A DNA stretch of 15,479 bases from a virus (Duplodnaviria; Heunggongvirae; Uroviricota; Caudoviricetes). Positions 610-15,479 of the stretch are shown here, one piece after another (position 1 is the stretch's first letter; every line of letters begins with the position of its first letter). Made by a program: the position numbers and the translations under genes. The stretch is taken from the IMG/VR virus record IMGVR_UViG_2695420487_000018. One strand, written 5' to 3'. The notes under the pieces are model-generated. The model did not search any database. It was not told the origin of the DNA and saw nothing but the letters and a program-made list of their open reading frames with translations.

Positions 610-902
610 CCCCATTAACCACAGGCGAATTTCCGCCTTCGGTCATTCCTTAATCATCTGCGTAATCATAATGATTATTCAGCAAGCGCAATTTTGCGCT
701 TTGCTTAAAGTTCAGCGAGTTACCGCGCCGACTTCCTCAAATTGAGGTTTCCGAAAATATCAGCGGGTTAGCGATTAAGCTGATCATTAATTAAACTGCG
801 AAAATTTCGTAGTTTGTGACTGTCTTTCAGGCAGCTTGTTAACAGTCCTCAGAAGCGAGGGATGTAGCCACCCATTTTTGGTCCGTCGGGAATATCAACC
901 AG

Positions 903-1184
903 TTACCGCCGCAACCGCTCCGGCTTCTTCCAGTGGTACGTTATTTTCTCCTTCTCCCGATACATCTCCACGCGGCGACGGTAGGCCAGCAACTCAAGAA
1001 CTCTGGTTCGTATGTTGCGCATATCCACGCCATTAAGTTCTATACCATCACGGCGCATCACCTCAGCAACAACACGCGCATAGTTTTCGGCTGTCACGCT
1101 GTCCGGCTGCGTGGCCTGTTCGTCAGCCTGCTGGCTGATTCCAGAGACGCGGCGGATTAATCGCAGTATTTCGGCTTCTGTCAT
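903..1184 (-). CDS. Hypothetical protein (93 aa), last gene of the packaging operon
   Basis: ORF starts 14 nt after the TerL stop, with GAGG about 9 nt upstream of the ATG; no family recognised. Confidence 0.5.
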   Translation of the reverse strand: MTEAEILRLIRRVSGISQQADEQATQPDSVTAENYARVVAEVMRRDGIELNGVDMRNIRTRVLELLAYRRRVEMYREKEKITYHWKKPERLRR

Positions 1185-1197
1185 GCTGCTGACCTCA

Positions 1198-2859: not shown

Positions 2860-3199
2860 GCTCGTCCTCTTCTTCTGTTTCCGGTGGATTTTTACGGCGG
2901 CTTATCGGGTCAAAACCGAGCAAGGAGGCCATTTTTATCATCACTCTTTCCGCGTCGGATTTCGCGCTTAATGCGGGGTTTCTGCTCTCTCCGCCCTGAC
3001 TGTTAACAATGCTGAACCCGCGCGCCGCAAGGTCTGCGACGGCTTTCCGGTATATCGAGTAATTGACGCAATACAGTTCCAGATTACTCCAGTCGGCGGG
3101 AGTCAGGTCACCCCGTTCCGCAAGCGGCCGCGATTTTTCCCGCCACTGCTTCACGGCGATATCATCCAGGTAGGCGGGGGCTTTCGGTGGTCTTGCCAT
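2843..3199 (-). CDS. terS: Terminase small subunit (P27-family-like)
   Basis: 118-aa ORF directly upstream of and overlapping TerL; acidic C-terminal tail EEEDELDRLE; size and position typical of HK97-type TerS. Confidence 0.75.
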   Translation of the reverse strand: MARPPKAPAYLDDIAVKQWREKSRPLAERGDLTPADWSNLELYCVNYSIYRKAVADLAARGFSIVNSQGGESRNPALSAKSDAERVMIKMASLLGFDPISRRKNPPETEEEDELDRLE

Positions 3200-3322
3200 G
3201 CTTATTTTTTCGCCAGATTATTTTTCAAAAAATTCCCGTGCATAAAAATTTGAGGAGGCGTTCGGTGCCCGGCGGGGTCGGGTTTGTCCTGAAAACGCCC
3301 CCCACCCCGTCATACAGCCTCA

Positions 3323-3505
3323 TCAGCGATTGCGGAAACATTCCATAACCTCGCGGTCACGGTCGGTTAATCGCTTCGCTGTGATGCGTTCTGCGCGTCC
3401 TGACGCTTTATCTTTATGCCCTGTTTCCTGTGTCTTCCATGCGTCACGCTGCCTTATAAGTCCACGGATAAGGCGGTTTTGTTCCCGCTCATTCATCAGC
3501 GTCAT
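3323..3505 (-). CDS. Small basic hypothetical protein (about 57-60 aa) between HNH and TerS
   Basis: ATG at 3505 or 3496 lies just upstream of, and out of frame with, the HNH stop (3489-3491), suggesting coupling; translation M(TLM)NEREQNRLIRGLIRQRDAWKT... is Arg/Lys-rich. Only the 3' part of the longer 3323..3727 track ORF is used; weak SD. Confidence 0.3.
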   Translation of the reverse strand: MTLMNEREQNRLIRGLIRQRDAWKTQETGHKDKASGRAERITAKRLTDRDREVMECFRNR

Positions 3506-3929
3506 ACATCCAGTTATTGCGGTTAGCGGCCCGTTCTTCCTCTTCATGAAATCCACCTGCGGCACGCTTGCTTTTTGTTGCCGGATCAAGCCATTTCGTT
3601 TTCTGGTTATGACACGCCTGGCACAATGGTTGATGGTTCCATTCGGGCCAGAAGAGAACATCATCACCGCCATTAATCGGGATAATGTGATCCACCACCA
3701 CGGCGGGCGTATATATCCCCTTCTCAAGGCATCGCACGCATAACGGGTTTTTACTCAGATACATGGCGCGGTATTTGTCCCACTGTCTGGAGTACCCACG
3801 CGCGCGGCGGTGTCCTCGTCTGGCATCCTCTGCACGCCATGCCGCCCGCCTGTGCTCCTCACACTTGCCGGACTTCACGCGCCTGTTACAGCCTGGTTCT
3901 GTGCATCGTCTTAATGGTTGCCACGGCAT
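3489..3929 (-). CDS. HNH endonuclease (terminase-associated)
   Basis: 146-aa ORF with Cys pairs and the HNH core ...VVDHIIPINGGDD...NHQPLCQACHNQKT; start overlaps the upstream gene stop (TGATG). Confidence 0.85.
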   Translation of the reverse strand: MPWQPLRRCTEPGCNRRVKSGKCEEHRRAAWRAEDARRGHRRARGYSRQWDKYRAMYLSKNPLCVRCLEKGIYTPAVVVDHIIPINGGDDVLFWPEWNHQPLCQACHNQKTKWLDPATKSKRAAGGFHEEEERAANRNNWMYDADE

Positions 3930-4225
3930 CAGTACACCCCCACATCACGGTAAGCCGTCCAGAGCGCGCCAATCGTCATGGGTACGCGCGTTTTTGCGTT
4001 ATCCGCTACCAGCTGGCGATTCTCGTACAGGTGAGCGATAAACATCATGCAGCCAATCTTTATGGCTGGCGTGAACTCCAGCCCGTCATCAAAGCGCCTG
4101 CCTATATGTATCTGGCACGCCTCAAGCGATGCGGCAATGTATCCGCTGATTAACTGGTCTTCCTCGTCGCCATCGATGCGGCAATGGAGTTTCACTTCTT
4201 CCAGGGTGATAAGTTCTTCTGTCAT
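3929..4225 (-). CDS. Head-tail connector protein (gp6-like family)
   Basis: 98-aa ORF; N-terminal LITLEEVKLHCRIDGDEEDQLI resembles the gp6-like connector signature; ATGA overlap with the upstream gene. Confidence 0.65.
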   Translation of the reverse strand: MTEELITLEEVKLHCRIDGDEEDQLISGYIAASLEACQIHIGRRFDDGLEFTPAIKIGCMMFIAHLYENRQLVADNAKTRVPMTIGALWTAYRDVGVY

Positions 4226-4560
4226 TTTTCCGCGCCCTCACGACAAAGAATTTCAAGGCGTGTCCTGGCGGCATCCGGCAGCGGCTGCCCGATGATATTC
4301 AGTACACGCCCCGCCAGCGGCCCCGTATTGACCTTTATCCGGCTGGTGGCGTTGATGTCCTTCCTGTAGCGTATCCATATCCTTACCGTTCCAGTCGCCA
4401 GTTCTGCACCCGATGAAATGGCCTCCTTGCTGCTGATCATGTTCACGCTTGCCCAGAGTGTGTGACCGTCCACCCACGTTTCGAGTATTTCGCCGGTTAT
4501 ATCCCTGGTCTGTTTCAGGGTCTGAATCGTTACCCTGTCACGCAGTCGCCCTATGTTCAT
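4222..4560 (-). CDS. Head closure / head-tail joining protein (Phage_H_T_join-like)
   Basis: Track ORF 4222..4602; likely start is the ATG at 4560, overlapping the portal stop (ATGA). About 112 aa, MNIGRLRDRVTIQ...VRIWIRYR... resembles head-tail joining proteins. Confidence 0.6.
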   Translation of the reverse strand: MNIGRLRDRVTIQTLKQTRDITGEILETWVDGHTLWASVNMISSKEAISSGAELATGTVRIWIRYRKDINATSRIKVNTGPLAGRVLNIIGQPLPDAARTRLEILCREGAEK

Positions 4561-5768
4561 TCCGGTTTTTCTCCCTCGCTGATTTTTACTTCCTGTTTCC
4601 ATGCCTGGCTGAACTCATCACCACCATCACGCGGGGACAGCCCTTCACGTTCGCGGGCTTCGTTCGGGCACATAACGCCGGATTTGATGCCGCGTTCATA
4701 GGTGGCAAAGCGTTCGCCAGGTGTGGCCCGTAACAGGTCCGCGCTGTCAAACTCCACCTGATACCGGATACCAGGTACAGGTGAGGCCACCAGCAGGGCG
4801 TTTTTTATCTGCTGCTCAAAGTTCGCCAGCCACGGGCGCATCGTCATGGTGAGAAATGCGCGGCTTGCCTCGCTGAAATTGCTGTAGGTGCTGTTGCTGT
4901 ATTCCTGCAAAAAAATCGGCGAGACGTTGAACATTCGGGCGATGTCTTCAATGGTGAAGCGACGGGAGGCCAGCCATTCAGCATCCTGATTACTCATGCC
5001 CAGCTGCTGATAGCTCATACCCCCTTCAAGGATGGGCGTTTTTCCGGCGTTTCTGGCCCCTTTGTAGCGTTCCAGTGCGGCTAATGCCTGTTTGCCCTTC
5101 ACGCCGTCCAGCCATTCGCCTGACGTGATAACCCCTGCCGCCATCATGCCATCACGCATCACGCTCGCGCCGTGGCGTTGTTGGGCCAGCCCAAGCCCCA
5201 GCGATTCGCGGCAGATGGTTACAGGTGAGCGCCCCATAAAACCGTCATCTGTGGAGTAACGAAGGTGGAGAACCTCCCACGGTAAATAGTTGCGGGTGTT
5301 TCCGGTGTAGGCGTCAGTGATGCAGTAGCGCCAGTTATGCTCACCTGTCTGCTCCACGTTCACCGACTGCGGCGGGTAAGGATGTAAAGCCACCGGAAAA
5401 CCATCACGCCCCCACCGAATCACCGCATAAGCATTACCGTTTAACAGGCAGTGGCGGATCATCATTCGCTTAAACTGGTAGGGGGTTTGCCACGCGTTCG
5501 GGCGCTCGTTGAGGATGTGATCGACCGGATGAGAATCAAGCCACTCGCGGGCCTCCTTCCCCTTCTCATTGCGTACCAGGTACAGGTAACACGGCATGGT
5601 AGCCACCGCCTCAGAGATGACCGTCACGACGTTCATGACGGCGGGCAGTGATTCCGCTGTCCCCGATGATACGTACTCACCCGCCCCCGTGTTCGATGTG
5701 CCGGCCAGCGCCATAAACTCATCAAGCGTCATGCTGCGCTGCTCTTTTTTTCTTCTGAAAGGCCACAT
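4557..5768 (-). CDS. Portal protein (HK97 family)
   Basis: 403-aa ORF directly after the prohead protease gene; size and sequence character of HK97-type portals. Confidence 0.85.
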   Translation of the reverse strand: MWPFRRKKEQRSMTLDEFMALAGTSNTGAGEYVSSGTAESLPAVMNVVTVISEAVATMPCYLYLVRNEKGKEAREWLDSHPVDHILNERPNAWQTPYQFKRMMIRHCLLNGNAYAVIRWGRDGFPVALHPYPPQSVNVEQTGEHNWRYCITDAYTGNTRNYLPWEVLHLRYSTDDGFMGRSPVTICRESLGLGLAQQRHGASVMRDGMMAAGVITSGEWLDGVKGKQALAALERYKGARNAGKTPILEGGMSYQQLGMSNQDAEWLASRRFTIEDIARMFNVSPIFLQEYSNSTYSNFSEASRAFLTMTMRPWLANFEQQIKNALLVASPVPGIRYQVEFDSADLLRATPGERFATYERGIKSGVMCPNEAREREGLSPRDGGDEFSQAWKQEVKISEGEKPE

Positions 5769-5769
5769 A

Positions 5770-6327
5770 TCACACCCCCGCTAAATCCGCCCACCAGCGG
5801 CGATTATCCGCACGCGGCATTTTTTCGGGGTGCTGCTCGTACAGGGAGCGGCGGGCCAGCTCCACGCCGGAATCAGGGTAAGCCGGTACGGATGTAACGG
5901 TAATTTCGTACAGTTCCGCCACCAGCACGGTGCGCACGCATGGATCTGTTGTGGTATCCCATACATCCTTACGGGAGCGAAAGCCAAAGCTCATGCCGGA
6001 TATATCACCACGTTTAACCAGTTCGATAACGTCCCGCCCTGTGCTGGTATCCGGTGGGATCAGTTCAAAACGTAACCCTGTGTCATCCTCTTCCAGTCTC
6101 AGCGTACCGGAACGGGTGCGCCCCAGTAACATGCTGTGGTCATGCTCATACAGGCCGCGAACGTCATTACCCACCGCAAGCCATTCAGTAAACGCCCCCC
6201 GCTGGAATTTTTCGTAAAACTCCCCCCATAGCAGCTCTGAAAGGTTATCCCAGCGAACAACGTAGCCTGTAAGCGTGTTGCTGCCGCTGGTGGTGATTTC
6301 CGATGACCGGATTTCCATACTCATCAT
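5770..6327 (-). CDS. Prohead maturation protease (HK97 family, S78-like)
   Basis: 185-aa ORF between capsid and portal genes; N-terminal ...TLTGYVVRWDN... and internal EHD motif typical of HK97 prohead proteases. Confidence 0.8.
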   Translation of the reverse strand: MMSMEIRSSEITTSGSNTLTGYVVRWDNLSELLWGEFYEKFQRGAFTEWLAVGNDVRGLYEHDHSMLLGRTRSGTLRLEEDDTGLRFELIPPDTSTGRDVIELVKRGDISGMSFGFRSRKDVWDTTTDPCVRTVLVAELYEITVTSVPAYPDSGVELARRSLYEQHPEKMPRADNRRWWADLAGV

Positions 6328-6381
6328 AATTTTTTCACCTGTAAAACAGAGAAGGGGCTTTTTAGCCCCTTCGGTGTGCTG

Positions 6382-7539
6382 TTAATCGTCGTCCTGCGGC
6401 AGTTCCAGAATCTTTATAGCGTTCGAATCCACCACGCCACCGCCTAAATATTTCTGCGTGAAAATTTTGATAAAGCCCGGCTCTGTCAGGTTGTCCGGTC
6501 TGGTGCGCACGCCCGTTTCATGATCAACGATGTAATAACCGCGTTTGAAGTCACCCAGGGCGATAACGTTATCCGGCATAAATTCCAGATACTCCACCGG
6601 AAGCCCCAGCAACGTATCAGGATCACCCGCCTGTAAACGGTCGCGCCAGATGTAATCGCCGTTCGCGTTCTTCACCTTCTGAAGTTTTGCCGCCGTCGTG
6701 GAGTTAACCACCCAGACCGCGTTTTTGCGGTATTTTTTACGTAATGCAAATTTCAGGTCGATCAGCGGGTCCGCAGATGTCCACGCCAGAGATTCGGAAG
6801 GTTTAATTACCTGCAACGTACCAAAATCACGCTCTTTGTCGTTCTTCTCTGCACGGGGTACGGATAAAAAACCTTTTGCTTTTTTGTCACCGTCGCCCAC
6901 AACCAGATCGCTTTCTTCGGTTTCCGTGAAGGTGTCGCCAATCTCACCCGTCAGCCATGAAAGGATGTCCACATCGGAAAAATCCACGATTTCCTGTGTG
7001 GTGCGCGGGTACGCATAGACCGGATACAGCTTAATGCTCACCTCGTTAATCTGCGGGGTGCTGGTCTGTTCGCGTGCCTTACCCTCTTCACCGTGGTTAA
7101 CGGTCGCACCGCCAGCGGAAACAAGCTGCTTAAACTCGTTGCTGCTGATTTTCTTCACGGTACAGATGCGGCGCATGGTGGATTCATCCGCCAGCATTCG
7201 CATGATTTCGGTGTTCAGCTCGGGGATAACGGTATAACCACCATCAGCGGGAACGCCTGTACTTAATGCGCGGGTTTCACCTGTCAGGATGTAGTTGCGT
7301 AGTTCTGCGGGGTCAGTGGTCTGACTGCTTTTACCTGGCTTGCTGCGCTCTTCGTCTGCAATGGCTTCAAGGCGGGAAATGTCTTTATCGAGGGATTCAG
7401 CTTTAGCGCGTAATTCGTCAAATTTTGCGCCCTCAGCATCGTTAAGACTGCGGTTTTCTTTTTCCGCGTTCTCCAGCATGTCGCGCATCTGATTTTTAAT
7501 GGCGGTTTTCTGCTGGCGTAATTCGATTATTCTCGGCAT
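6382..7539 (-). CDS. Major capsid protein (HK97 fold) with N-terminal coiled-coil delta/scaffold domain
   Basis: 385-aa ORF; first ~100 aa are coiled-coil-like (IIELRQQKTAIKNQMRDMLENAEKENRSL...), followed by a capsid-like body. Confidence 0.85.
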   Translation of the reverse strand: MPRIIELRQQKTAIKNQMRDMLENAEKENRSLNDAEGAKFDELRAKAESLDKDISRLEAIADEERSKPGKSSQTTDPAELRNYILTGETRALSTGVPADGGYTVIPELNTEIMRMLADESTMRRICTVKKISSNEFKQLVSAGGATVNHGEEGKAREQTSTPQINEVSIKLYPVYAYPRTTQEIVDFSDVDILSWLTGEIGDTFTETEESDLVVGDGDKKAKGFLSVPRAEKNDKERDFGTLQVIKPSESLAWTSADPLIDLKFALRKKYRKNAVWVVNSTTAAKLQKVKNANGDYIWRDRLQAGDPDTLLGLPVEYLEFMPDNVIALGDFKRGYYIVDHETGVRTRPDNLTEPGFIKIFTQKYLGGGVVDSNAIKILELPQDDD

Positions 7540-7546
7540 AAAAAAA

Positions 7547-7576
7547 GTCCTGGGGTTAAGTAAGGAACTCCAGGAC
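7547..7576 (-). promoter_or_regulatory. Hairpin immediately upstream of the capsid gene start; its 3' arm contains the only SD-like AGGA and is followed by U7 then AUG
   Basis: Minus-strand RNA GUCCUGG-AGUU-CCUUACUU-AACC-CCAGGAC-UUUUUUU-AUG; 7-bp perfect stem plus 3 further pairs after one mismatch. Confidence 0.45.
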
Positions 7577-7629
7577 GCGGCAAAAACTCAACCGTTTTTC
7601 ATAAGGAAATCAGCAATCGCACCGTTCGT

Positions 7630-7677
7630 TTTCCCGCCTGGTAATGAATATTGGCGAGAACATTAACAGGCGGGAAA
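7630..7677 (-). other. Long imperfect hairpin in the capsid-operon leader (11-bp perfect stem TTTCCCGCCTG/CAGGCGGGAAA plus 5 inner pairs, 14-nt loop)
   Basis: Read directly from the sequence; no U-run follows on either strand. Confidence 0.5.
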
Positions 7678-7754
7678 GTGGCCCCAGCGTCCTGGCACCA
7701 CGGGCGAGAATAATCATGATTCAGTTCGGGTAAAATATGCCGATCCGCTCAGTG

Positions 7755-7779
7755 AACAACGTGGAACAACCACGAACAA
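7755..7779. promoter_or_regulatory. 25-bp dyad motif AACAACGTGGAACAACCACGAACAA (core CGTGG-AACAA-CCACG) upstream of the capsid operon; a second copy lies at 14170-14194 and a half-copy at 252-266
   Basis: Exact or near-exact matches found by eye (1 mismatch between the two full copies); both lie inside runs of 10-bp-phased ACAA/TGTT. Confidence 0.55.
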
Positions 7780-7796
7780 ATAATTTACAAAACATG

Positions 7797-7820
7797 ACAA
7801 AAAGCCGGATTGCTCCGGCT
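7797..7820 (-). terminator. Rho-independent terminator ending the replication/regulatory operon
   Basis: Minus-strand RNA AGCCGGA-GCAA-UCCGGCU followed by UUUUUGU, 7 nt after the stop of the 7827..8099 gene. Confidence 0.65.
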
Positions 7821-7826
7821 GTGTGA

Positions 7827-8099
7827 TTATCTGTCCTGGTAATTTCGCCATATTTCATCACCAGCACCATCCATACCCATTTCGGCATAAGTGCGATCGA
7901 CCGCCTTTTTCAGGTCTCCGTAATTATCCGGCGGCTCCGGTGGCCTCTGTGCCTTCCTGGAACATTCCAGCCGTCGCATCGTGATGTGATGCCGTTCCTT
8001 GTCTGTCTCCACCAGTTGCATGACTTCACCCCATCGCGCCGACGCTCTCCGGTAAAAGCCTTTCGCCTCCAGTTCTTCCGCTATGCGGTCATGTACCAT
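7827..8099 (-). CDS. Small hypothetical protein (about 90 aa); possibly a PerC/ANR-like regulator (uncertain)
   Basis: Track ORF 7827..8108 starts at GTG; the ATG at 8099 has GGGGTGGGGA upstream. Motif AEELEAKGFYRRASARWGEVM is reminiscent of PerC/ANR-type proteins, from memory only. Confidence 0.55.
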   Translation of the reverse strand: MVHDRIAEELEAKGFYRRASARWGEVMQLVETDKERHHITMRRLECSRKAQRPPEPPDNYGDLKKAVDRTYAEMGMDGAGDEIWRNYQDR

Positions 8100-8111
8100 C
8101 GTCCCCACCCC

Positions 8112-8522
8112 TCAGAACGGAATATCATCACCGTAAGGGTCATCGCCTTCCGCTGGTGGCTGATTACCCTGTGTGCCTGTGGTCTTGCGTCTGTTCCCGC
8201 CAGGACGTGCCGCACGGGCACTGATTACGCTGTCTGCAATAACCTGATACCCCCGCCGCGTTTCCCCGTTCTGTCCGGTCCACTGGCTTACCTGCATCGT
8301 GCCGGATACGCTGGCAACATCGCCTTTTTGATGTTTAGCCAGGAAATCGGCCTGTTTGCCAAATGCGATAACCGATAACCATAACGTCGCCTGTCCGTCA
8401 TGTGCCTGGCTGCATGGCAGCGATACCGCCATACGCGCCAGCGTCATCGGTGTTCCCTTGCTGGTCTGTTTTACCTGCGGGTCGTCCACCAGCCGCCCGT
8501 AAGCCGCTATCTGTGCTGTCAT
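8112..8522 (-). CDS. ssb: Single-stranded DNA-binding protein
   Basis: 136-aa ORF; OB-fold-like N-terminal region, Gly/Pro/Gln-rich linker, acidic C-terminal tail ending DDIPF (SSB signature); ATGA overlap with the upstream gene. Confidence 0.85.
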   Translation of the reverse strand: MTAQIAAYGRLVDDPQVKQTSKGTPMTLARMAVSLPCSQAHDGQATLWLSVIAFGKQADFLAKHQKGDVASVSGTMQVSQWTGQNGETRRGYQVIADSVISARAARPGGNRRKTTGTQGNQPPAEGDDPYGDDIPF

Positions 8523-8770
8523 GCTGTCTGCTCTCCGGTTTTAACGTTGATGGTTGTTACCTGTTCCGCTTCGGCAATCTCCCGTTCTGTCAACGTGGCA
8601 AAGTTTGCCGCTGCTGTGGTCATGAATGCGCTTATCAGGTCGGGATGTTCCTTCGCGTATCCTTCCCCTACATGTCGGTCTATCGTTCTGATTGCCACCT
8701 TTAAGGCCAGCTCTGTTATATCTAACGCTTTATATTTCGGCTCTGTTCTGTCTCTGCGTGTTCTGGTCAT
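8519..8770 (-). CDS. Hypothetical protein (about 83 aa) immediately downstream of the origin
   Basis: Track ORF 8519..8803; the ATG at 8770 has GAGGTGG upstream, and the earlier ATG lies in the AT-rich origin. Confidence 0.5.
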   Translation of the reverse strand: MTRTRRDRTEPKYKALDITELALKVAIRTIDRHVGEGYAKEHPDLISAFMTTAAANFATLTEREIAEAEQVTTINVKTGEQTA

Positions 8771-8803
8771 TTGCCACCTCAATTTATATATATATAGAAA
8801 CAT

Positions 8804-9120
8804 GTGCGGGTTATGCGGGTTATTGGGTTATCTTAGCGTGCTAACCATTTTTTATCCTTTTATATCAGCATGTTGCAAAACGCCCTGTTTATTATTTGCT
8901 CACCACATAACCCGCAAAACGCTCAAAATAACCCGCAAACGGGGTTTTTTCTGCGGGTTACGCATGACTGTCCGGTGTTACTTCAGTTATTCGCCTGCGG
9001 GTTATAATCGTGCTTTTGCGGGTTATAAATGCCCTTTTGCGGGTTACGTGCGGGTTATTGATTTCCTTTATATTCATGCGCTTAATACACTTATACACAG
9101 GATAACCCGCATAACCCGCA
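8804..9120. repeat. Iteron-type replication origin: about 12 copies of GCGGGTTA(T/C) (8 forward, 4 reverse) plus AT-rich tracts
   Basis: Forward copies at 8806, 8815, 8953, 8997, 9018, 9039, 9050 (and degenerate 8824); reverse ATAACCCGC at 8907, 8928, 9102, 9111; AT-rich 8780-8800 and 8840-8900; directly downstream of the rep gene. Confidence 0.8.
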
Positions 9121-9142
9121 ATTTTTTTCCTCACACAGGGGA

Positions 9143-11275
9143 TTAATCTTCATCATCAGGCTGGAACATCAGCACGTAAAAAACATGCTGCTTACCCCCA
9201 ATCTTGCCCAGCGCCTTTTTTTTGTATCGGCGATCGCTTCCCTTCTCCAGCATTCCGGCAGCATCCAGGGCACGCGCAAAATGCGCCGGATTAAATCCCT
9301 TCGCTATCTCACTCTCAAACACGTGCGGGAACGTGTAATAGCGCATCTCGTCATCTTCGTTGCGAATGCTCCCTTTTCTGTATCCGGCAAGCTCTTTAAT
9401 CGGTAAATCACGCTCATCTGTATTGGGGTACGGAAGGTAGCGGCTAAACCCAAACGACGACAAAAACGCCTCAGCCTGTTCAACCATCTGTTTAAATTCC
9501 CTGTTACCTGTGCCGAACTCCTTCACCCAGGCATTAAAGTTATGCTGTATCGCGTCGCGGCATTCCTGCACGACCCAGCCAGTTACATGACCGGAAAGCA
9601 CAAGCGCGGCCTCCAGTATGGCGAAACGTTCACCCACGCGGTGGACCTGCTCGCCGTAACTCTCCGGTATCAGGTTGCGCCACCGTTCGCGGCATTCCCT
9701 TACCGTGTCCTTTGCCTCCTGCTGGTGGCCTGCCAGCCATTTAACCCACTCACGACCCGCCGCCCCGTGATTTGCTGTCCAGGCATCCTTTAACGCGTCA
9801 GCATGTTCCTTACCGTTGCTGTATTCGTGAAATTTCGTGGCTTTTTCCATCGGAACGTTAAGCAGTCGGACAAGCTGCCCCGCCTTAACTTTTATCCCCT
9901 CACTTTTGAGGAATGTCTCAACGTCCATTTCTCCGGTGCTGATTGCCACCGTTCGCCAGTGTTTGATCTCCCTGTTGCCGCCATCCTTCGCCCCCTGCAA
10001 TTTCCCTGAACCGTTAAACAGCGTATAAGCAGACGTTGACACTTCCCGCGCATTTCCGGCCTGGCCTATCTCATCCAGTGGTAAAAGCCCGTCATTATGG
10101 GCCTCGGCCTCATTGGCAATACCTAACGCCGTGCCGTACCAGGTCAGCCGCTGCGCGTCCGGCTCTCCCCATAAACTTGATGCGATGTTCTGCGTGGTGG
10201 TCTTACCTGCCGATGACTGTTCGAAAAGATGCACCCCGAAGCCGTCAGCACCCACAAGGCCAATTAAAGGCGCTGCCAGTGACGTTGCCACACCCAGTAT
10301 CATTGAGGCATTACCGCCAGCCAGCCGCGCCACGCTGTCGCGCCAGCCATCCGCCGTGCCCGCCACGGAATAACCGTTAATCGCGGCGCTTTTTCCGGTA
10401 AACAGGATCGGTTTTTCAGATTCACCAATGATCGAACCGTCCGGCATGATGTACGCGCCAAAATGCCAGCCCGTTGTTGTGCTTAACTGCCATTCCTCAT
10501 GGCTTCCGCTTAACTGCATCCAGTCCGCCAGGATTGCCCTGTATTTGCCGTTGGTTGTCACGTTCAGCCCGTGATCTTTAAGTAACCGCCAGCCGTCACG
10601 GTCGCCGATACCACCACACGGGATCGCCATTGTGATGACTTTATGGTTTGCGGTTTTTTTCCAGCGCATCACGCGGTAATGCTCTTTACCGATCGTCCCC
10701 GTTCCCAGTAGTTCAAGCGGAGAACATAACCACGTCTCAGGCCGGATAATTTCGCCTGACTGCTTATCCACTTTGGGCGTTACCCAGAAAACACCATCGG
10801 CGCGACTTTCAACGCGTGGCTTTAATTCGTCATCGCTATGGCTTCCGGTATCTTTTTTCTTTACCGGAAACTCAATAACCAGACCATCAGAAAGATTCTG
10901 CCGCTCACGGGCCAGATATTCGCGCCAGTTCTCCACCTTCTGACCGTGCATTCCTTCGGGGTAAAAATTTGCGTCCTGAATATCTGCCGCCGCCAGCTTC
11001 TGACCAATCTTTTTGGTCTCCACCAAATCCAGTTCTCCGGCCTGGTACAGCCTTACGCGTTTTTTTCCATCCGGAACAATTTTCAGCGCATCAAGTTCGG
11101 CAAGCTGATTTGGCCCAAGCCACACAGGCGGAACATTATCGCCGGATGCGGGGCCATCCTGCTCCTGCCATTGTTTCGCGTGCGACCAGGCATCACTACC
11201 CGCGAAAATAATTACCTCTGTGTCTTTGTGTTTTATTCCGCGTGGCTGTTTTTTTACGTTCGGTGCCAGTTTCAT
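9143..11275 (-). CDS. Replication initiator, primase/helicase-type (P-loop NTPase; DUF927/D5-like family suspected)
   Basis: 710-aa ORF; Walker A-like FEQSSAGKTT; position immediately upstream of the iterons matches pri-rep genes of satellites. Confidence 0.8.
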   Translation of the reverse strand: MKLAPNVKKQPRGIKHKDTEVIIFAGSDAWSHAKQWQEQDGPASGDNVPPVWLGPNQLAELDALKIVPDGKKRVRLYQAGELDLVETKKIGQKLAAADIQDANFYPEGMHGQKVENWREYLARERQNLSDGLVIEFPVKKKDTGSHSDDELKPRVESRADGVFWVTPKVDKQSGEIIRPETWLCSPLELLGTGTIGKEHYRVMRWKKTANHKVITMAIPCGGIGDRDGWRLLKDHGLNVTTNGKYRAILADWMQLSGSHEEWQLSTTTGWHFGAYIMPDGSIIGESEKPILFTGKSAAINGYSVAGTADGWRDSVARLAGGNASMILGVATSLAAPLIGLVGADGFGVHLFEQSSAGKTTTQNIASSLWGEPDAQRLTWYGTALGIANEAEAHNDGLLPLDEIGQAGNAREVSTSAYTLFNGSGKLQGAKDGGNREIKHWRTVAISTGEMDVETFLKSEGIKVKAGQLVRLLNVPMEKATKFHEYSNGKEHADALKDAWTANHGAAGREWVKWLAGHQQEAKDTVRECRERWRNLIPESYGEQVHRVGERFAILEAALVLSGHVTGWVVQECRDAIQHNFNAWVKEFGTGNREFKQMVEQAEAFLSSFGFSRYLPYPNTDERDLPIKELAGYRKGSIRNEDDEMRYYTFPHVFESEIAKGFNPAHFARALDAAGMLEKGSDRRYKKKALGKIGGKQHVFYVLMFQPDDED

Positions 11276-11571
11276 TTCTTACCCCTGAATACGTTAAGCA
11301 TCTTTTTTATTTCCTGAATATTGGCGCGTGCTTTCTCCCTGCTGGTTGGTTTACTGCGGGGCGCTGCCTGTACCAGAGAAAAATCACGCCGGAACTGATA
11401 AACAGGCATCACGCAATCATATTCGTAGCCTTCACGATGGTAGGTTACGCGCCGTTCCTCCACGCCCTTAATCATTACCGTGCCGCCGTACTGGTCGCGG
11501 TAAATATCCCCGCGCATGAATTTAGTGCGAGTTTTGCCGCTGTCAGTTAAGCCAGGATATTTAAGTTTCAT
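11272..11571 (-). CDS. Hypothetical protein (99 aa)
   Basis: ORF ends overlapping the rep start; GGGGA upstream of the ATG. Confidence 0.55.
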   Translation of the reverse strand: MKLKYPGLTDSGKTRTKFMRGDIYRDQYGGTVMIKGVEERRVTYHREGYEYDCVMPVYQFRRDFSLVQAAPRSKPTSREKARANIQEIKKMLNVFRGKK

Positions 11572-11576
11572 TATTT

Positions 11577-11840
11577 TTATTCCCCGATAGCGTGACCTGA
11601 TAAGCCGTTAATCTTCTCTGATATGCTCTCTATTTTGCTGGTTGAACTATCCAGTAATTCAGAAACGGCTAATATTAATCTTGCAGTTGATTCATCGCGT
11701 TCATTATTCACCAGCGACTGAAGCCACATATTCATTACTTCGTTTGCTGCGTTGTTTAAAGATATTGCGCTGTTGGCAAGGCTTCTTAATTCACTGGTCG
11801 CCAGTTTATTATTTTTCATAGCGTTCGGCTCTCTCATCAA
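11577..11840 (-). CDS. Hypothetical small helical protein (80-87 aa), AT-rich gene
   Basis: ORF track; alternative start at 11819; local GC visibly lower than the island average. Confidence 0.5.
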   Translation of the reverse strand: MMREPNAMKNNKLATSELRSLANSAISLNNAANEVMNMWLQSLVNNERDESTARLILAVSELLDSSTSKIESISEKINGLSGHAIGE

Positions 11841-12000
11841 TTAACCACAGCGCAACACTTCCTGACAGTTTTGCCAGAAGGCCAGCTAATGCGGATATAT
11901 CACCATCATTTAATTTATCAGGGTATACCTCAAGAAGGCGGCAAATAATTTCTGTCTGGTGCGCACGTTCAGCGGCTTCGTGTAATGTAATTTCCTTCAT
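11809..12000 (-). CDS. Hypothetical small protein (63 aa), AT-rich gene
   Basis: ATG at 12000 overlaps the upstream gene stop (TAATG). Confidence 0.5.
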   Translation of the reverse strand: MKEITLHEAAERAHQTEIICRLLEVYPDKLNDGDISALAGLLAKLSGSVALWLIDERAERYEK

Positions 12001-12185
12001 TAATGCACCTCTTTTAATTCATACACTGCTGAAATAATGACTTGTGATAAGCCATATTCTGATGATTCGCTTCTCACCGCAGCAATAGCCGTCTGAACAT
12101 TAACAGCCTTCACATTCTGAGCGATACCAATTGTGTGGCCTAGTGGGTTAACAGCGCTGGCAAATACACGGAAGGTTTTAAGCAC
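12000..12185 (-). CDS. Hypothetical small protein (about 62 aa)
   Basis: Track ORF 12000..12215 begins at TTG; the GTG at 12185 has AGGGGG 7 nt upstream and overlaps the upstream stop. Confidence 0.4.
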   Translation of the reverse strand: MLKTFRVFASAVNPLGHTIGIAQNVKAVNVQTAIAAVRSESSEYGLSQVIISAVYELKEVH

Positions 12186-12642
12186 GGCACACCCCCTGAC
12201 GAATACGGGCGACAAAAATCAGATGTGCGTGCGGCAGCTGGGCGCGGGCTTCGCGTTCAGTGGCTGCGGTAACGGTGTAAATATCAATGCTGCTGTGGTG
12301 GCACTGCATAAAGCGCCAGACAAAGTAAGGGCGTGCGGATACAGCCATGTGAAAGGCTCCCAGATGAATTTTAAGGAGTCTCGCTACTACGCTGCTAAAC
12401 ATGGTGGCGAGACGTAACAGGGTTAGCAGACTGGTCATCTGGAAACCAGCGAGCACAAAGGCTCCCCCGTTACGCCCCGCCATAATGCGGGTATGGGTAG
12501 GTTTACGGACACAAAAAAACCGCTTATCGGATGTGGGCGGCTGTCCGCCAGATGTATTCAGGCTGCTAAACCCGGTCGCCATGTGGGCGACGGGGGAAGC
12601 ATACAGCCCCGTGATAATTTTTTGCAAGCGGTTTTTACGCAT
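12178..12642 (-). CDS. Hypothetical protein; C-terminal about 55 aa paralogous to the 12635..12907 product
   Basis: Track ORF 12178..12684; ATG at 12642. C-terminal motifs FVWRF, TEREAR, ARIRQG are shared with the upstream gene, with third-position differences (GTC/GTG, CGC/CGT). Confidence 0.45.
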   Translation of the reverse strand: MRKNRLQKIITGLYASPVAHMATGFSSLNTSGGQPPTSDKRFFCVRKPTHTRIMAGRNGGAFVLAGFQMTSLLTLLRLATMFSSVVARLLKIHLGAFHMAVSARPYFVWRFMQCHHSSIDIYTVTAATEREARAQLPHAHLIFVARIRQGVCRA

Positions 12643-12907
12643 GATGTGACCCCTGACGAATACGGGCGGCAAATACAGCAACACAACCTGACGGGCAACG
12701 GCTACGCGCTTCGCGTTCCGTCCAGGCGGTTACGTGGATGATTTGAGATTCTCCGGCACTCAGTGCCAGAAAACGCCACACAAAGGCCGTTTGTGTGTGT
12801 ACAAGGTGTGGTATATGATTTACAGCAACCATAACGGCTCCTAGTTTACGTTGTTGGTTAGAAGCCCTGCGAGTGGTAACGACACTTGCGGGGCTTTGTC
12901 TTTTCAT
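12635..12907 (-). CDS. Hypothetical small protein (65-90 aa), first gene of the leftward operon; paralog of the next gene's C-terminal domain
   Basis: ATG at 12907 (AAGG upstream) or 12832 (AGGAG 5 nt upstream); same conserved motifs as the downstream paralog. Confidence 0.5.
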   Translation of the reverse strand: MKRQSPASVVTTRRASNQQRKLGAVMVAVNHIPHLVHTQTAFVWRFLALSAGESQIIHVTAWTEREARSRCPSGCVAVFAARIRQGSHHA

Positions 12908-12923
12908 CGATTACCTTGATAAA

Positions 12924-13006
12924 GGTGTCAGCCACTATATTAGTAACGGGTGTCAGCCACGTCAATAGTGTTTTTCCGTTTTCTTGTGTGTATACTGTCA
13001 GCCACC
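12924..13006. promoter_or_regulatory. Divergent promoter/operator region: leftward promoter TTGACG-N17-TAATAT (minus strand), rightward -10 TATACT, and three direct repeats TGTCAGCCAC
   Basis: Minus-strand -35 is rc of 12960-12965 and -10 is rc of 12937-12942 with a 17-nt spacer. Repeats at 12926-12935, 12951-12960 and 12996-13005 overlap promoter elements on both strands. Confidence 0.6.
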
Positions 13007-13026
13007 TAATAACGAGGAAATCAGAT

Positions 13027-13206
13027 ATGGCAACAAAAGCAGTTAATGCAAAATCCAAAAAGCTTGAGGCTCGAGTACCACACGCAATAGCTGATGCTGT
13101 AGAAAATTTAAAGGAAGATGGCGAAAGTACAGGGCAATTTATCGTTTCGGCACTTGAAGGCGAGATCAAACGCCGCCAGCGCCGCAAGGCCAAAGAATCA
13201 GAATAA
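13027..13206 (+). CDS. Small DNA-binding protein, ribbon-helix-helix-like (59 aa); candidate regulator of the switch
   Basis: GAGGA 8 nt upstream of the ATG; pattern KKLEARVPHAIADAVENLKEDGESTGQFIVSALEGEI fits a beta-strand plus two helices; basic C-terminal tail. Confidence 0.55.
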   Translation: MATKAVNAKSKKLEARVPHAIADAVENLKEDGESTGQFIVSALEGEIKRRQRRKAKESE

Positions 13207-13248
13207 TCACTATCAGCGCCGTGGTGTGAGGTATTACGGCGCATTGCT

Positions 13249-13437
13249 ATGCAGGACAACACAATGACCGATAAAGAATTGACCAAAACATTATCACCGG
13301 CACGGAAAAGACGGCGCAGAAAGATAGAGCATGAATCAGAAAGATTCGCACCATGTGCTTTTGCCCTTGAGCAATTCCTTAAAGAGTACAGGGAAAAGCG
13401 CTCATTGCAGGTATGGCAACGAACTGAACCAGACTGA
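13249..13437 (+). CDS. Possible small basic protein (62 aa)
   Basis: ORF between the RHH-like gene and the plus-strand terminator; no convincing SD. Confidence 0.25.
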   Translation: MQDNTMTDKELTKTLSPARKRRRRKIEHESERFAPCAFALEQFLKEYREKRSLQVWQRTEPD

Positions 13438-13532
13438 TTGCATTGCCCACCAGCCTGATAGCGGCTATCATCCCCGTGCTTATGTTTGGGATCACACACA
13501 CAAACGGCGCAGCGGGTTATCTGTTCAGAAAG

Positions 13533-13560
13533 GCGGCTCCATTTCGGGGCCGCTTTTTTT
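13533..13560 (+). terminator. Rho-independent terminator of the rightward unit
   Basis: GCGGCTCC-ATTTC-GGGGCCGC (8-bp stem with one G-U) followed by TTTTTTT. Confidence 0.7.
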
Positions 13561-13706
13561 ATACCTGAAAAACCCCAATTTTGTTGTTTTTCAGTTTCAC
13601 CAGGGCGAACGAATCCCCGCCCACGTTCTGGCGTATATTCAATCTTCATGGTTATAGCTCTGTGTTCAGATGATTGATGTGTGGCGGCTGCGTGCCGCCA
13701 GCGTGA

Positions 13707-13895
13707 TTAATGAACTGCCTTGCAGCTATCCTTCCAGGCCAGAACCTCGGATAAAGACCAGCCAACGGAACGACCGCCAAGTTTACGACGTGATGGGAAT
13801 TGTCCGGCCTTTTCCAGGCGGTAGCGACACGTACGGCTAAGGCCGGTTAGTTTTTCGCATTCTTTTTCACGTATAAACCGATCAGTGCTTAACAC
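13707..13895 (-). CDS. alpA: AlpA-family transcriptional regulator (excisionase-like HTH)
   Basis: 62-aa ORF ...KECEKLTGLSRTCRYRLEKAGQFPSRRKLGGRSVGWSLSEVLAWK... matches the AlpA pattern; GTG start with AGGGGGG 6 nt upstream; sits next to int. Confidence 0.8.
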   Translation of the reverse strand: MLSTDRFIREKECEKLTGLSRTCRYRLEKAGQFPSRRKLGGRSVGWSLSEVLAWKDSCKAVH

Positions 13896-14047
13896 TATTG
13901 CCCCCCCTTTCGTTTCTTAAAGAGTCATCAGGTGTCTTATTGTGTCGTATTGTTCCCGCTAGAGTGATGAATGGCAAATATTGAGGATGTATGATTTACA
14001 GAAAATGAAACAGTAAGAATAAAATCTTTTAAATTCATGTTAATACA

Positions 14048-14094
14048 AAGGCATAAAATATTGTTTCATGCCTTTTTTCTCGCTCTTTAAAGAG
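14048..14094. other. Hairpin AAGGCAT-N13-ATGCCTT followed by TTTTCT on the plus strand, then a perfect 12-bp palindrome CTCTTTAAAGAG (14083-14094)
   Basis: Read directly from the sequence; lies between int and alpA; the strand on which it would terminate is ambiguous. Confidence 0.4.
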
Positions 14095-14169
14095 TGATTC
14101 GCTAGTGTATAAAAAACCAGTGACACATTAAAAATCAGCCACTTATAAATCTGTATGCTTTTTCGCCTC

Positions 14170-14220
14170 TTGTTCGTGGTTGTTCCACATTGTTGCTCAT
14201 TGTTGCACGTTGTATCTGTT
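14170..14220. promoter_or_regulatory. Second copy of the 25-bp dyad motif (rc AACAATGTGGAACAACCACGAACAA) within five 10-bp-phased TGTT units, upstream of alpA
   Basis: 14171-14220 reads tgttcgtggt/tgttccacat/tgttgctcat/tgttgcacgt/tgtatctgtt; one mismatch relative to the 7755-7779 copy. Confidence 0.55.
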
Positions 14221-14261
14221 CGCATATACAGTATGCGCATACTGAAAAAACACGAAAAAAA

Positions 14262-15479
14262 TTATTTTCTTCTGGCTACTGGTAGCGTGGTTACGTTTTC
14301 ATGTGTTCCCGCCAGTATCCCTAACCGCTCCGTCCACATATCCAGCGCATTGCGTTTAGCATCCAGATAACGGGAATGATTATAAACTCGCTGCATTCCT
14401 GGCATCTGGTGGCCTGTAAGCTGCTCCACGACATGCGGATCAACGCCTAAATCGTTCAGCATCGTTGTAAAGGTGCGCCGGATGTCATGCAGTGACCAGT
14501 GAGGATGATTAAGCCTCCTGTGCGCTAATCTTCCATACTGCGATACGCTGGCCTCCTGTTTCACTTCCCCCAGCAATAAGCCCGTGTGCCTGTTCTGCTC
14601 CACCAGCTGCGTGACGAACGGCAGGATCGCTTCCGGTATGGGCCGGAATATTGCGACCTTCGTTTTGCTGTGCTCCTTCGGAACGGTCCATAGCATTTCC
14701 GTAAAATCCCACTCTCCGATCTCCGATAACCTCAGTTCTACCGTTCTGGCTCCGAAGACAATCAGGAGGCGGATTAACGCGACGTAGTAAGGGGAGAATA
14801 TTTTTTTGTCCAGTGCCTGCAATAATTCGCCAAGTTCTTTGTTACTTAAGACACGTTCGCTTATATCCGGTTTTTTCCCAACGTCCGCCACGTTCAGATC
14901 GTCCAGAACGTTGCTGATTGCATAGCGCCGCCTACGGCAGAACTTAAGCGCCTGTTTGCACGCCTGTAGCACGAATCCGGCAGTAACAGGCGTTCGCTTT
15001 GCCACCTGGTCAAAACAGGCCAGCCAGTGCCGTAGCTCGCATTTATCCAGCGGCATAGCACCAATCTGCTGTATTACGTGATTATTAAGTCGCCTTTTCA
15101 GGGCGATATAATCCACGCGGTTTTCCTTTACGTAATACTCAAGCCAGTAGGTGAGCGCATCGCCAACCGTTACCGGCTTTAACGCTTCCTGTACGGTGTA
15201 ATTAAGCTCATGACGTGGATTTTTCCCCTCTGCCAGCCATGCGCGACACTGGGCGGCTTTTTCCCTGGCTGATTTCAGGCTCAGATCAGGATAACTTCCC
15301 AGCTTAATGCGTTCGGGTCGTGTCTCCCTTCCCGTTCCGGCCCTGTATGTGAAATACCAGGTCAATTTCCCTGATGTTAAATATTTCACGCTCAGGTTTC
15401 CGCCATCACTATAAAACGTGTTTTTCTCCGCTGGCTTACCATGAAGTTTCCTTAGCAAGGTATCGCTCAGTTTGTTCAT
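14262..15479 (-). CDS. int: Tyrosine site-specific integrase (P4-like, with N-terminal arm-binding domain)
   Basis: 405-aa ORF starting at the window edge; catalytic-domain motifs HDIRRTF and RVYNHSRY; N-terminus GNLSVKYLTSGKLTWYFTYR typical of arm-binding domains. Confidence 0.9.
   Translation of the reverse strand: MNKLSDTLLRKLHGKPAEKNTFYSDGGNLSVKYLTSGKLTWYFTYRAGTGRETRPERIKLGSYPDLSLKSAREKAAQCRAWLAEGKNPRHELNYTVQEALKPVTVGDALTYWLEYYVKENRVDYIALKRRLNNHVIQQIGAMPLDKCELRHWLACFDQVAKRTPVTAGFVLQACKQALKFCRRRRYAISNVLDDLNVADVGKKPDISERVLSNKELGELLQALDKKIFSPYYVALIRLLIVFGARTVELRLSEIGEWDFTEMLWTVPKEHSKTKVAIFRPIPEAILPFVTQLVEQNRHTGLLLGEVKQEASVSQYGRLAHRRLNHPHWSLHDIRRTFTTMLNDLGVDPHVVEQLTGHQMPGMQRVYNHSRYLDAKRNALDMWTERLGILAGTHENVTTLPVARRK

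Follow-up and report, generated by a model that had tools for sequence, protein, structure and literature searches.

The 15,479-nucleotide (nt) DNA of the IMG/VR virus record IMGVR_UViG_2695420487_000018 (the window) carries three overlapping small genes at positions 11577–12185 of its minus strand, here termed A, B, and C, within a capsid-forming phage-inducible chromosomal island (cf-PICI). We found that this trio occupies an ordered slot of small-gene cassettes between an Icd-like gene and a DUF4222 gene (gene D, of the RgdR type), which in turn precedes the replication gene pri-rep. We tentatively favor, with a probability of roughly 0.45, the reading that A, B, and C are genes of this early-operon cassette slot whose products act as early, stoichiometric, protein-binding modulators of the helper phage, of the host, or of the island's own D–Rep block. 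This reading is preferred over four others, in which the genes are replication accessories, a toxin–antitoxin-like pair, autonomous cargo, or a mere translational relay.

Coding status and base composition of A, B, and C

The original prediction, a reading of this DNA from its letters alone, had placed three overlapping small open reading frames (ORFs) at 11577–12185, and the minus-strand ORFs agree with it in coordinates and sizes (61, 63, and 80 amino acids, aa); the three genes exactly fill this interval (Table 1). Their G+C content is 0.419 versus 0.511 for the window, which bears out the earlier remark that it is visibly lower than in the rest of the island. At third codon positions (GC3), it is 0.33–0.40 in the trio versus 0.53–0.66 in the flanking genes, and only 3.2% of all 609-nt segments are equally AT-rich, these being the trio itself and the alpA–int spacer. 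Low G+C is general for genes in the slot position of other islands and is lowest in the C family (mean 0.39).

Hidden Markov models (HMMs) of PHROG families matched all three proteins over their full length, i.e., phrog_3672 for A (E = 9e-46), phrog_1478 for B (E = 8e-35), and phrog_5796 for C (E = 8e-53), all labeled "unknown function," and identical islands in RefSeq have the same three coding sequences annotated. Relative to an 86%-identical island, the substitutions at the first, second, and third codon positions number 15, 8, and 26 in A and 13, 12, and 33 in C, favoring the third position. Across related loci, the Nei–Gojobori ratio of nonsynonymous to synonymous substitution rates (dN/dS) is 0.25 for C, 0.30 for B, and about 0.48 for A (from three pairs only); that of the neighboring gene D, whose homolog RgdR has been functionally characterized, is 0.27. 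Collectively, the PHROG matches, the RefSeq annotation, the third-position substitutions, and the dN/dS values indicate that A, B, and C are genuine protein-coding genes under purifying selection. The full trio is present in 153 of 5426 complete E. coli genomes, and A and B accompany a different C allele in about 130 further ones. The sequences are already catalogued as hypothetical proteins, and their kind is familiar: small early-operon genes of phages and satellites.

The trio is part of one string of overlapping genes

The string runs in the order Icd-like ORF, A, B, C, DUF4222 (RgdR), and pri-rep. The Icd-like stop and the start of A overlap by 8 nt (GTGCTTAA), A and B overlap by TAATG, and B and C overlap by 11 nt (ATGAAAAATAA); the stop codon of C is followed after 5 nt by the start of the DUF4222 gene, whose ribosome-binding site is held by the final codons of C (..GGGGAATAA), and D overlaps pri-rep by ATGA. 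The assigned start of A is backed by its overlap with the Icd-like stop, which is conserved as ATGCTTAA/GTGCTTAA. Across loci, nearly all slot junctions are start/stop overlaps (ATGnnTAA, ATGnnnAATAA, ATGCGTGA, or TAATG), whichever cassettes meet. A consensus scan of 11577–12185 detected no minus-strand terminator, and its promoter-like sites were at background (6 found versus 4.5 ± 2.2 in shuffled sequence), with one weak site inside B. As far as such scans can tell, there is no room in the trio for autonomous expression signals. The overlaps suggest that the string is probably translationally coupled, whereby ribosomes would pass from icd to A, B, C, D, and finally pri-rep.

Overlaps that are kept at every junction with any cassette, combined with a freely variable number of cassettes, could also mean that the ORFs merely relay translation from icd to pri-rep against Rho termination, the sequence of the peptides being irrelevant; in P1/P4-type immunity, termination depends on leader translation, which counts for this idea. 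Nevertheless, we consider it extremely improbable, given that the dN/dS values (0.25–0.5) are in the same range as that of gene D, that each family retains conserved residues across about 30–50% sequence divergence, and that B is 50% identical in Klebsiella phages.

The original prediction had regarded the genes as moron-like inserts. The variable slot, the optional nature of A and B (about 10 and 23 of 82 loci, respectively), and the deviant G+C agree with this description, but the absence of an own promoter, terminator, or intergenic space does not. Likewise, lambdoid morons share with the trio a deviant base composition and, for A and B but not for C, presence or absence between conserved neighbors; they differ in that the trio lacks its own promoter and terminator and is tied into the operon by overlaps. 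It is therefore very unlikely in our view that the trio is autonomous moron-type cargo (defense, anti-defense, or virulence) that the integrated island expresses to its host's advantage: although the low G+C, the presence/absence polymorphism between conserved neighbors, and the effect of the adjoining gene D (RgdR) on host virulence gene expression (PMC3378721) speak for it, the expression signals outlined above are missing, no PADLOC family is matched, the accessory and immune regions recognized in published PICIs lie elsewhere, at the 5′ end, at the 3′ end, and downstream of pri (PMC11364771), and deletion mapping of O-island 51 (OI-51) assigned the activation of type III secretion to rgdR alone (PMC3378721).

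An ordered cassette slot separates the Icd-like gene from DUF4222

We surveyed 91 loci with a DUF4222 homolog (80 from IMG/VR, nine from E. coli RefSeq genomes, one from Shigella, and one from E. albertii) and 48 further loci found by searching with A; some contigs are in both sets, and about 130 related loci were covered overall. The slot statistics rest on the 82 loci that have an Icd-like gene upstream. Between the Icd-like stop and the start of DUF4222 lie 6 to 1861 bp (modes near 226, 446, 610–690, 890, and 1030 bp). The slot contains zero to five small genes, which fall into seven or more families without detectable relationship to one another and keep a constant order: (A, G7, or H)-(B)-(E)-(G5)-(F)-(C). 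The C family, joined by single-linkage clustering and backed by reciprocal PHROG matches, occurs in 76 loci, always last, with 40 distinct sequences in three to four subtypes that are about 30% identical. Family E occurs in 42 loci, F in 26, B in 20 plus three fused forms, A in eight plus two A–B fusions, G5/G7 in 15, and H in two. None of the slot families has a Pfam or functional PHROG assignment. The idea that all cassettes are paralogs of one helical domain was rejected, as pairwise hhalign comparisons of A, B, C, E, F, and Icd gave probabilities of 2.5% or less. We also rejected the idea that slot content is specific to the type of replication protein; the same cassette sets were seen with three types (P4-type primase, RepA helicase, and DUF927). 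It is mildly new to describe the stretch from Icd to DUF4222 as a slot of cassettes in fixed order whose position is equivalent to that of the epsilon slot in P4.

With a single exception, every locus that bears A has B next in line: this holds for all 48 A-retrieved loci and for 9 of the 10 in the D-retrieved set. Of the A-retrieved loci, 47 show the order Icd-A-B-C-D-rep. B is present and A absent in 14 loci. A C-family gene is missing from six of the 82 loci, and some slots are empty. By these counts, A and B behave as a linked optional pair and C as a near-core partner of the DUF4222–Rep block. The trio, which the original prediction had treated as one insert, is thus not one evolutionary unit, since the C family is present in 76 of 82 loci. 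The same forecast had set its accessory cargo against conserved core genes with known replication roles; C comes near to a core gene, but no replication role is known for it.

Adjacent cassettes were also found fused by frameshifts, E–F in 15 loci (10 distinct sequences), A–B in two, and B–E in one. These fusions arise by single-base frameshifts at the overlapping junction, e.g., L005 4532–4996 and L002 9538–9915. Their repeated occurrence hints, at the sequence level, that the products of adjacent cassettes may work together.

The linkage of A and B bears on whether they form a toxin–antitoxin-like or inhibitor–partner pair, i.e., selfish or abortive-infection cargo. Their co-occurrence is asymmetric (A nearly always with B, and 14 loci with B but no A), A is near neutral to basic (isoelectric point, pI, 8.2) and B acidic (pI 5.0), and the TAATG junction is common to both, all of which would suit such a pair. 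Yet the candidate identity of the trio as defense or toxin proteins was rejected after Pfam, NCBIfam, and PADLOC all came up empty, there is no autonomous bicistron or own promoter but an embedding in a probably coupled operon, an A–B frameshift fusion persists in two loci, which is odd for a toxin–antitoxin system, and the B homologs of Klebsiella phages have another upstream neighbor. We give the pair long odds. The toxin/antitoxin-like functions proposed originally find no backing here, nor does a defense identity; the helper-interference and anti-defense roles named alongside them are still candidates.

The near-core behavior of C raises a different alternative, namely that C, perhaps with the rest of the string, assists replication or copy-number control in the manner of P4 Cnr by acting on the DUF4222 protein or on the N-terminal domain of rep. 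We judge this unlikely. The C family lies directly upstream of DUF4222 and rep wherever it is found (76 of 82 loci), C is acidic and D strongly basic, the two travel as a block with the conserved N-terminal domain of about 125 aa of rep, and P4 cnr is situated directly upstream of alpha. However, adjacency alone accounts for the linkage too; C has no similarity to Cnr/DUF5375, six loci do without C and some slots are empty, and A and B are clearly optional. Moreover, the C subtypes are about 30% identical while D is 80–100% identical (the loci being D-retrieved), which is unexpected for a tightly co-adapted partner.

Properties of the individual proteins

The remote homology searches and structure prediction that had been proposed for the trio were productive in part: PHROG families were matched and C was modeled, but the model of A is unusable. 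Pfam and NCBIfam searches gave nothing significant for the three proteins, and no PADLOC-DB 2.0 family was found at E ≤ 1 for A, B, C, D, or either Icd-like protein. A PDB sequence search, made with the profile of A only, had no match either, in line with the earlier remark that the genes have no recognizable motifs.

Protein A (pI 8.2) starts with GTG in the window and with ATG in most relatives. Among 5.8 billion sequences, it is represented by only 11 protein clusters, all from Escherichia coli where the organism is named, and it is an optional cassette found only in Escherichia/Shigella. Its AlphaFold model has a predicted local distance difference test (pLDDT) score of 57.6. A was also considered as a diverged paralog of the Icd-like protein on account of a similar hydrophobic pattern, which was rejected at an hhalign probability of 0.1%.

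Protein B is acidic and is represented by 44 protein clusters in Escherichia, Shigella, and E. albertii. Its sequence pattern suggests two helices flanking a YPDKLNDGD loop. It is the sole member of the trio found outside Escherichia/Shigella satellites, with 50%-identical homologs in the early-left operon of Klebsiella temperate phages, where they lie in a string of small genes by the repressor. One of these homologs, in Klebsiella phage ST340-VIM1phi10.1 (L189, 4501–4689), is located beside a LexA-family repressor; phages of this type are 36–40 kb. Arrays of short, overlapping ORFs annotated without a function are also found beside the immunity region in the early-left operons of temperate phages, and in the Klebsiella array, the B homolog likewise overlaps its upstream neighbor by 8 nt. 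The window differs from these arrays in that its own leads into a satellite replication gene.

Protein C is acidic (pI 5.1) and has a second PHROG match, phrog_2196 (E = 6e-11); its subtypes match the same PHROGs reciprocally. AlphaFold predicts an antiparallel two-helix hairpin (helices 2–37 and 43–79, pLDDT 80.4), for which fold searches in PDB and BFVD returned generic helical hairpins only, none at E ≤ 0.001. They gave no support to C being a Rop-like RNA-binding protein, a candidate considered because of the antisense RNA described below. An exhaustive HMMER search with the C profile against 1.84 billion cluster representatives found only the cluster of C itself and two long proteins (985 and 1137 aa), whose matches consist of several short stretches each and are taken to be spurious. 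Among 50,697 phage records, neither A nor C had a match, and searching the phage collection at the nucleotide level with the entire region gave none. The family searches all indicate a narrow Escherichia/Shigella range, B excepted, and a scan of species-representative genomes for D found only Shigella and E. albertii.

The trio stands at the position of P4 epsilon/orf151 and P1 ant

The window shares with satellite P4 the order of an AlpA/Vis-type regulator, an antisense RNA of the C4/CI clan, an Icd-like ORF, small genes, and a replication protein; in the left (alpha) operon of P4, the elements are the CI RNA, an Icd-like ORF, epsilon, orf151, cnr, and the alpha primase, an order that matches the window. 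Even the first junction is alike: the Icd-like stop of P4 overlaps the GTG of epsilon by 8 nt (GTGCGTAA; junction GTGCNTAA), as it does that of A in the window. The Icd-like domain of P4 was recognized in the last 65 residues of the 137-aa ORF annotated as "cI gene product" (L092, 8168–8584; NF033153, 76 bits). As judged by profile similarity, P4 immunity is linked to the P1 icd family at the protein level besides the RNA level. P4 differs from the window in that cnr rather than a DUF4222 gene precedes the replication gene, in that its replication protein is alpha rather than a DUF927 protein, and in having no capsids of its own. With the immI operon of P1/P7 (c4 RNA, icd, and ant1/ant2), the window shares the C4 RNA, an a1b1-type match, and the Icd-like ORF, and its downstream gene begins inside the end of icd, as would be expected for coupling of the P1 type. 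In P1, translational coupling transmits C4 repression downstream of icd. On the other hand, the a1b1 match of the window lies 1.2 bits under the gathering threshold, and the C4 module is missing from many trio-bearing islands.

P4 epsilon is an anti-repressor that awakens the helper, and P1 Ant is likewise an antirepressor. The trio stands at their position and that of orf151, but the equivalence is positional only. At E ≤ 1, A, B, and C did not match PF25738, to which P4 epsilon itself scores 170 bits; family HMMs of A, B, C, E, and F had no significant match among the P4 proteins; and neither C nor D matched DUF5375, to which P4 Cnr itself scores 211 bits. D was also rejected as a homolog of orf151, the similarity being at noise level and Pfam finding no DUF4222 in orf151. 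No Ant, KilA, or Bro domain was found in A, B, C, or D by Pfam, NCBIfam, or PHROG searches, and the window has no Ant homolog.

Evidence for and against a modulator function

The modulator reading is favored because the three proteins are short (61–80 aa), B and C are acidic, C is a predicted hairpin, and all are under purifying selection. The explanation as a whole further draws on the coding evidence, the junction overlaps, the variable but ordered slot of unrelated families and its occurrence with three rep types, the linkage of A to B, the C4 RNA and Icd-like ORFs, the layout shared with P4, the Klebsiella homologs of B, and the mosaic breakpoint at the start of A. According to this reading, the trio would be made only when antisense-RNA immunity lifts at island induction, and A, B, and C would then bind proteins of the helper phage or of the host, or else the D/Rep block of the island itself; they would not be enzymes, defense systems, or toxins. 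The helical hairpin of C could pair into a four-helix bundle.

Several points weigh against this reading. The searches of Pfam, NCBIfam, PADLOC, PDB (A only), and predicted folds were empty or generic, and the trio as homologs of P4 epsilon, orf151, or cnr was rejected with noise-level matches only, so that the analogy is positional. Helpers induce PICIs via AlpA, not the reverse (PMC6092414; bioRxiv 2022.09.08.507074). Neither the EcCIEDL933-type island nor most of the scanned trio-bearing loci have the C4 RNA; C4 gating would be a feature of the mosaic window, not of the trio generally. The coupling is read from the overlaps; the survey is biased and redundant, with loci retrieved by similarity to D or A and mostly from E. 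coli isolates; and the slot genes were called with an ORF-tiling heuristic of our own and then clustered.

A bolder proposal, which we consider decidedly unlikely, is that the slot is a hitherto undescribed fourth variable region of Gram-negative PICIs whose interchangeable specificity cassettes act on the helper prophage, for example as anti-repressors functionally equivalent to epsilon or Ant. If it were true, a PICI that enters a lysogen or already resides there could wake or reprogram its helper rather than just await induction by it, and the repressor or early protein that is targeted in the helper would differ from one cassette family or allele to the next.

We found no phenotypes of the trio genes in a literature search, nor any characterization of the genes between alpA and the replication gene in the literature searched. 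Published cloning and deletion work on PICIs addressed the genes after ori and the packaging module (PMC6092414; PMC6739421; bioRxiv 2022.09.08.507074), and only the genes after ori were cloned in the interference screen of EcCICFT073 (PMC6739421). PICIs and cf-PICIs are major gene-transfer vehicles in Enterobacteria. The stretch is an ordered, recombining cassette array under purifying selection, within an immunity/replication operon and at the position of helper derepression in P4, and the A, B, and C families together with E, F, and G are concrete candidates for the early interplay among satellite, helper, and host. Should the products have housekeeping roles in the island, the finding would be an ordinary one.

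The window is a mosaic cf-PICI

The window represents a phage satellite whose genes lie almost entirely on the minus strand, in the order integrase, AlpA, two Icd-like ORFs, four small genes, pri-rep, a head/packaging module, and the large terminase last (Table 1). Within about 15 kb, it has the set by which cf-PICIs are recognized, namely int, alpA, and pri-rep together with genes of its own for capsid, protease, portal, connector, and terminase; islands of the EcCIEDL933 type have been described as such (bioRxiv 10.1101/2022.09.08.507074). Positions 891–12216 are about 97% identical to an E. coli island sited between phoQ and roxA. Because that island carries an annotated head and terminase set (capsid, protease, portal, connectors, and terminase), the window is, by sequence comparison, a cf-PICI of the EcCIEDL933/CP-933C lineage. 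In this island type (EcCIEDL933/CP-933C/O-island 51 of E. coli O157:H7, the prototype cf-PICI), the trio is 100% identical to that of the window, is annotated as hypothetical proteins, and has rgdR directly downstream.

The window differs from this type in its left arm (12191–15479, comprising the C4 RNA, the second Icd-like ORF, YlcI, AlpA, and int), which stems from another island lineage and is about 92% identical to L003, the island of strain GPEC874 inserted in tqsA. The breakpoint of the mosaic (12191–12216) falls exactly at the Icd-to-A junction, i.e., at the start of gene A. Its location on this conserved junction suggests that the overlapping junctions may act as recombination points for cassette exchange.

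Table 1. Features of the window around the cassette slot
Feature	Position	Strand	Product or start	Evidence
Integrase	14262–15479		405-aa ORF reaching the window end	Position; counterparts in L001 (frameshifted) and L003 annotated as tyrosine recombinase
AlpA	13707–13895			Pfam, E = 5e-17
Icd-like ORF 1	12635–12907	minus	90 aa as longest ORF	NF033153, 63.8 bits
a1/b1-type C4 target	12555–12604	minus		RF03163, 45.5 bits (gathering 46.7, just below)
isrK-like match	12513–12591	minus	Terminator-like hairpin with T run inside, downstream of the a1/b1 target	RF01394, 36.8 bits, below gathering
C4-type antisense RNA (P1/P7 immI, P4 CI RNA clan)	12400–12487	minus		RF01695, 72.7 bits (gathering 45), E = 7e-13
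Icd-like leader ORF 2	12178–12351	minus	About 57 aa	NCBIfam NF033153, 55 bits (cut-off 25)
Gene A	12000–12185	minus	GTG start, 61 aa	phrog_3672
Gene B	11809–12000	minus	ATG start, 63 aa	phrog_1478
Gene C	11577–11819	minus	ATG start, 80 aa	phrog_5796
Gene D (DUF4222 protein, RgdR type)	11272–11571	minus	99 aa, pI 10.1, RGD motif	PF13973, E = 2e-23
pri-rep	9143–11275	minus	710 aa, last gene of the string	Pfam DUF927, E = 1e-48; phrog_1139 "DNA primase"

A C4 RNA module lies upstream of the trio in some islands

The C4 RNA adjoins Icd-like ORF 2 directly upstream, and the 69-nt leader that runs down to the icd2 start outperformed all 500 shuffles in pairing with it. In a crude duplex test, the a1b1 site was not separated from shuffles in its pairing with the C4 RNA; its homolog in L003 scores 46.8 bits. 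The C4 module was found in the window and in L003, L008, L009, L011, L015, and L038. The window thereby presents a P1/P4-type immunity module (C4 RNA, sub-gathering a1b1 target, and isrK-like hairpin) between two Icd-like ORFs of a cf-PICI, and we found no paper that describes C4/CI-type RNA control in PICIs.

The relatives of Icd-like ORF 1 in L004 and L006 begin at an internal MVAVNH and have about 65 aa. A long "Icd-like" ORF of 168 aa (12178–12684, minus strand) runs through the C4 RNA gene, as does a counterpart in L003 (10199–10660) that RefSeq annotates with 153 aa. The long ORF is probably over-called, and the real start is most likely near 12351 (MAVSARPYF...).

The downstream block and other genes of the window

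The original prediction had set the trio upstream of pri-rep; this position is right, but a fourth small gene, the DUF4222/RgdR gene D, intervenes and had been omitted. Gene D corresponds to ECs1581 of O157 Sakai. RgdR, which is encoded on OI-51/CP-933C, has 99 aa and a pI of 10.09 (PMC3378721; also PMC10877973), and is reported to affect host virulence gene expression and to activate the type III secretion system of the locus of enterocyte effacement in O157:H7 (PMC3378721). DNA matching the D region is present in 1273 of the 5426 complete E. coli genomes, and in every locus inspected, D immediately precedes a satellite replication gene.

The N-terminal domain of pri-rep (window about 10900–11275; also in L003, L005, and L006) is common to the three rep types at 57–80% identity, i.e., to the DUF927 protein (710 aa), the P4-type primase (582–584 aa), and the RepA helicase (466 aa), whose C-terminal parts are unrelated. 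Together with the DUF4222 and C-family genes, this shared domain forms a conserved block that travels as one.

Between alpA and the Icd-like genes, a YlcI/YnfO-family gene of 59 aa (about 13027–13206; NCBIfam, 58.5 bits) lies on the opposite, plus strand. A 263-aa minus-strand ORF that overlaps it (12858–13649) is rich in Cys, Ser, and Arg and looks spurious.

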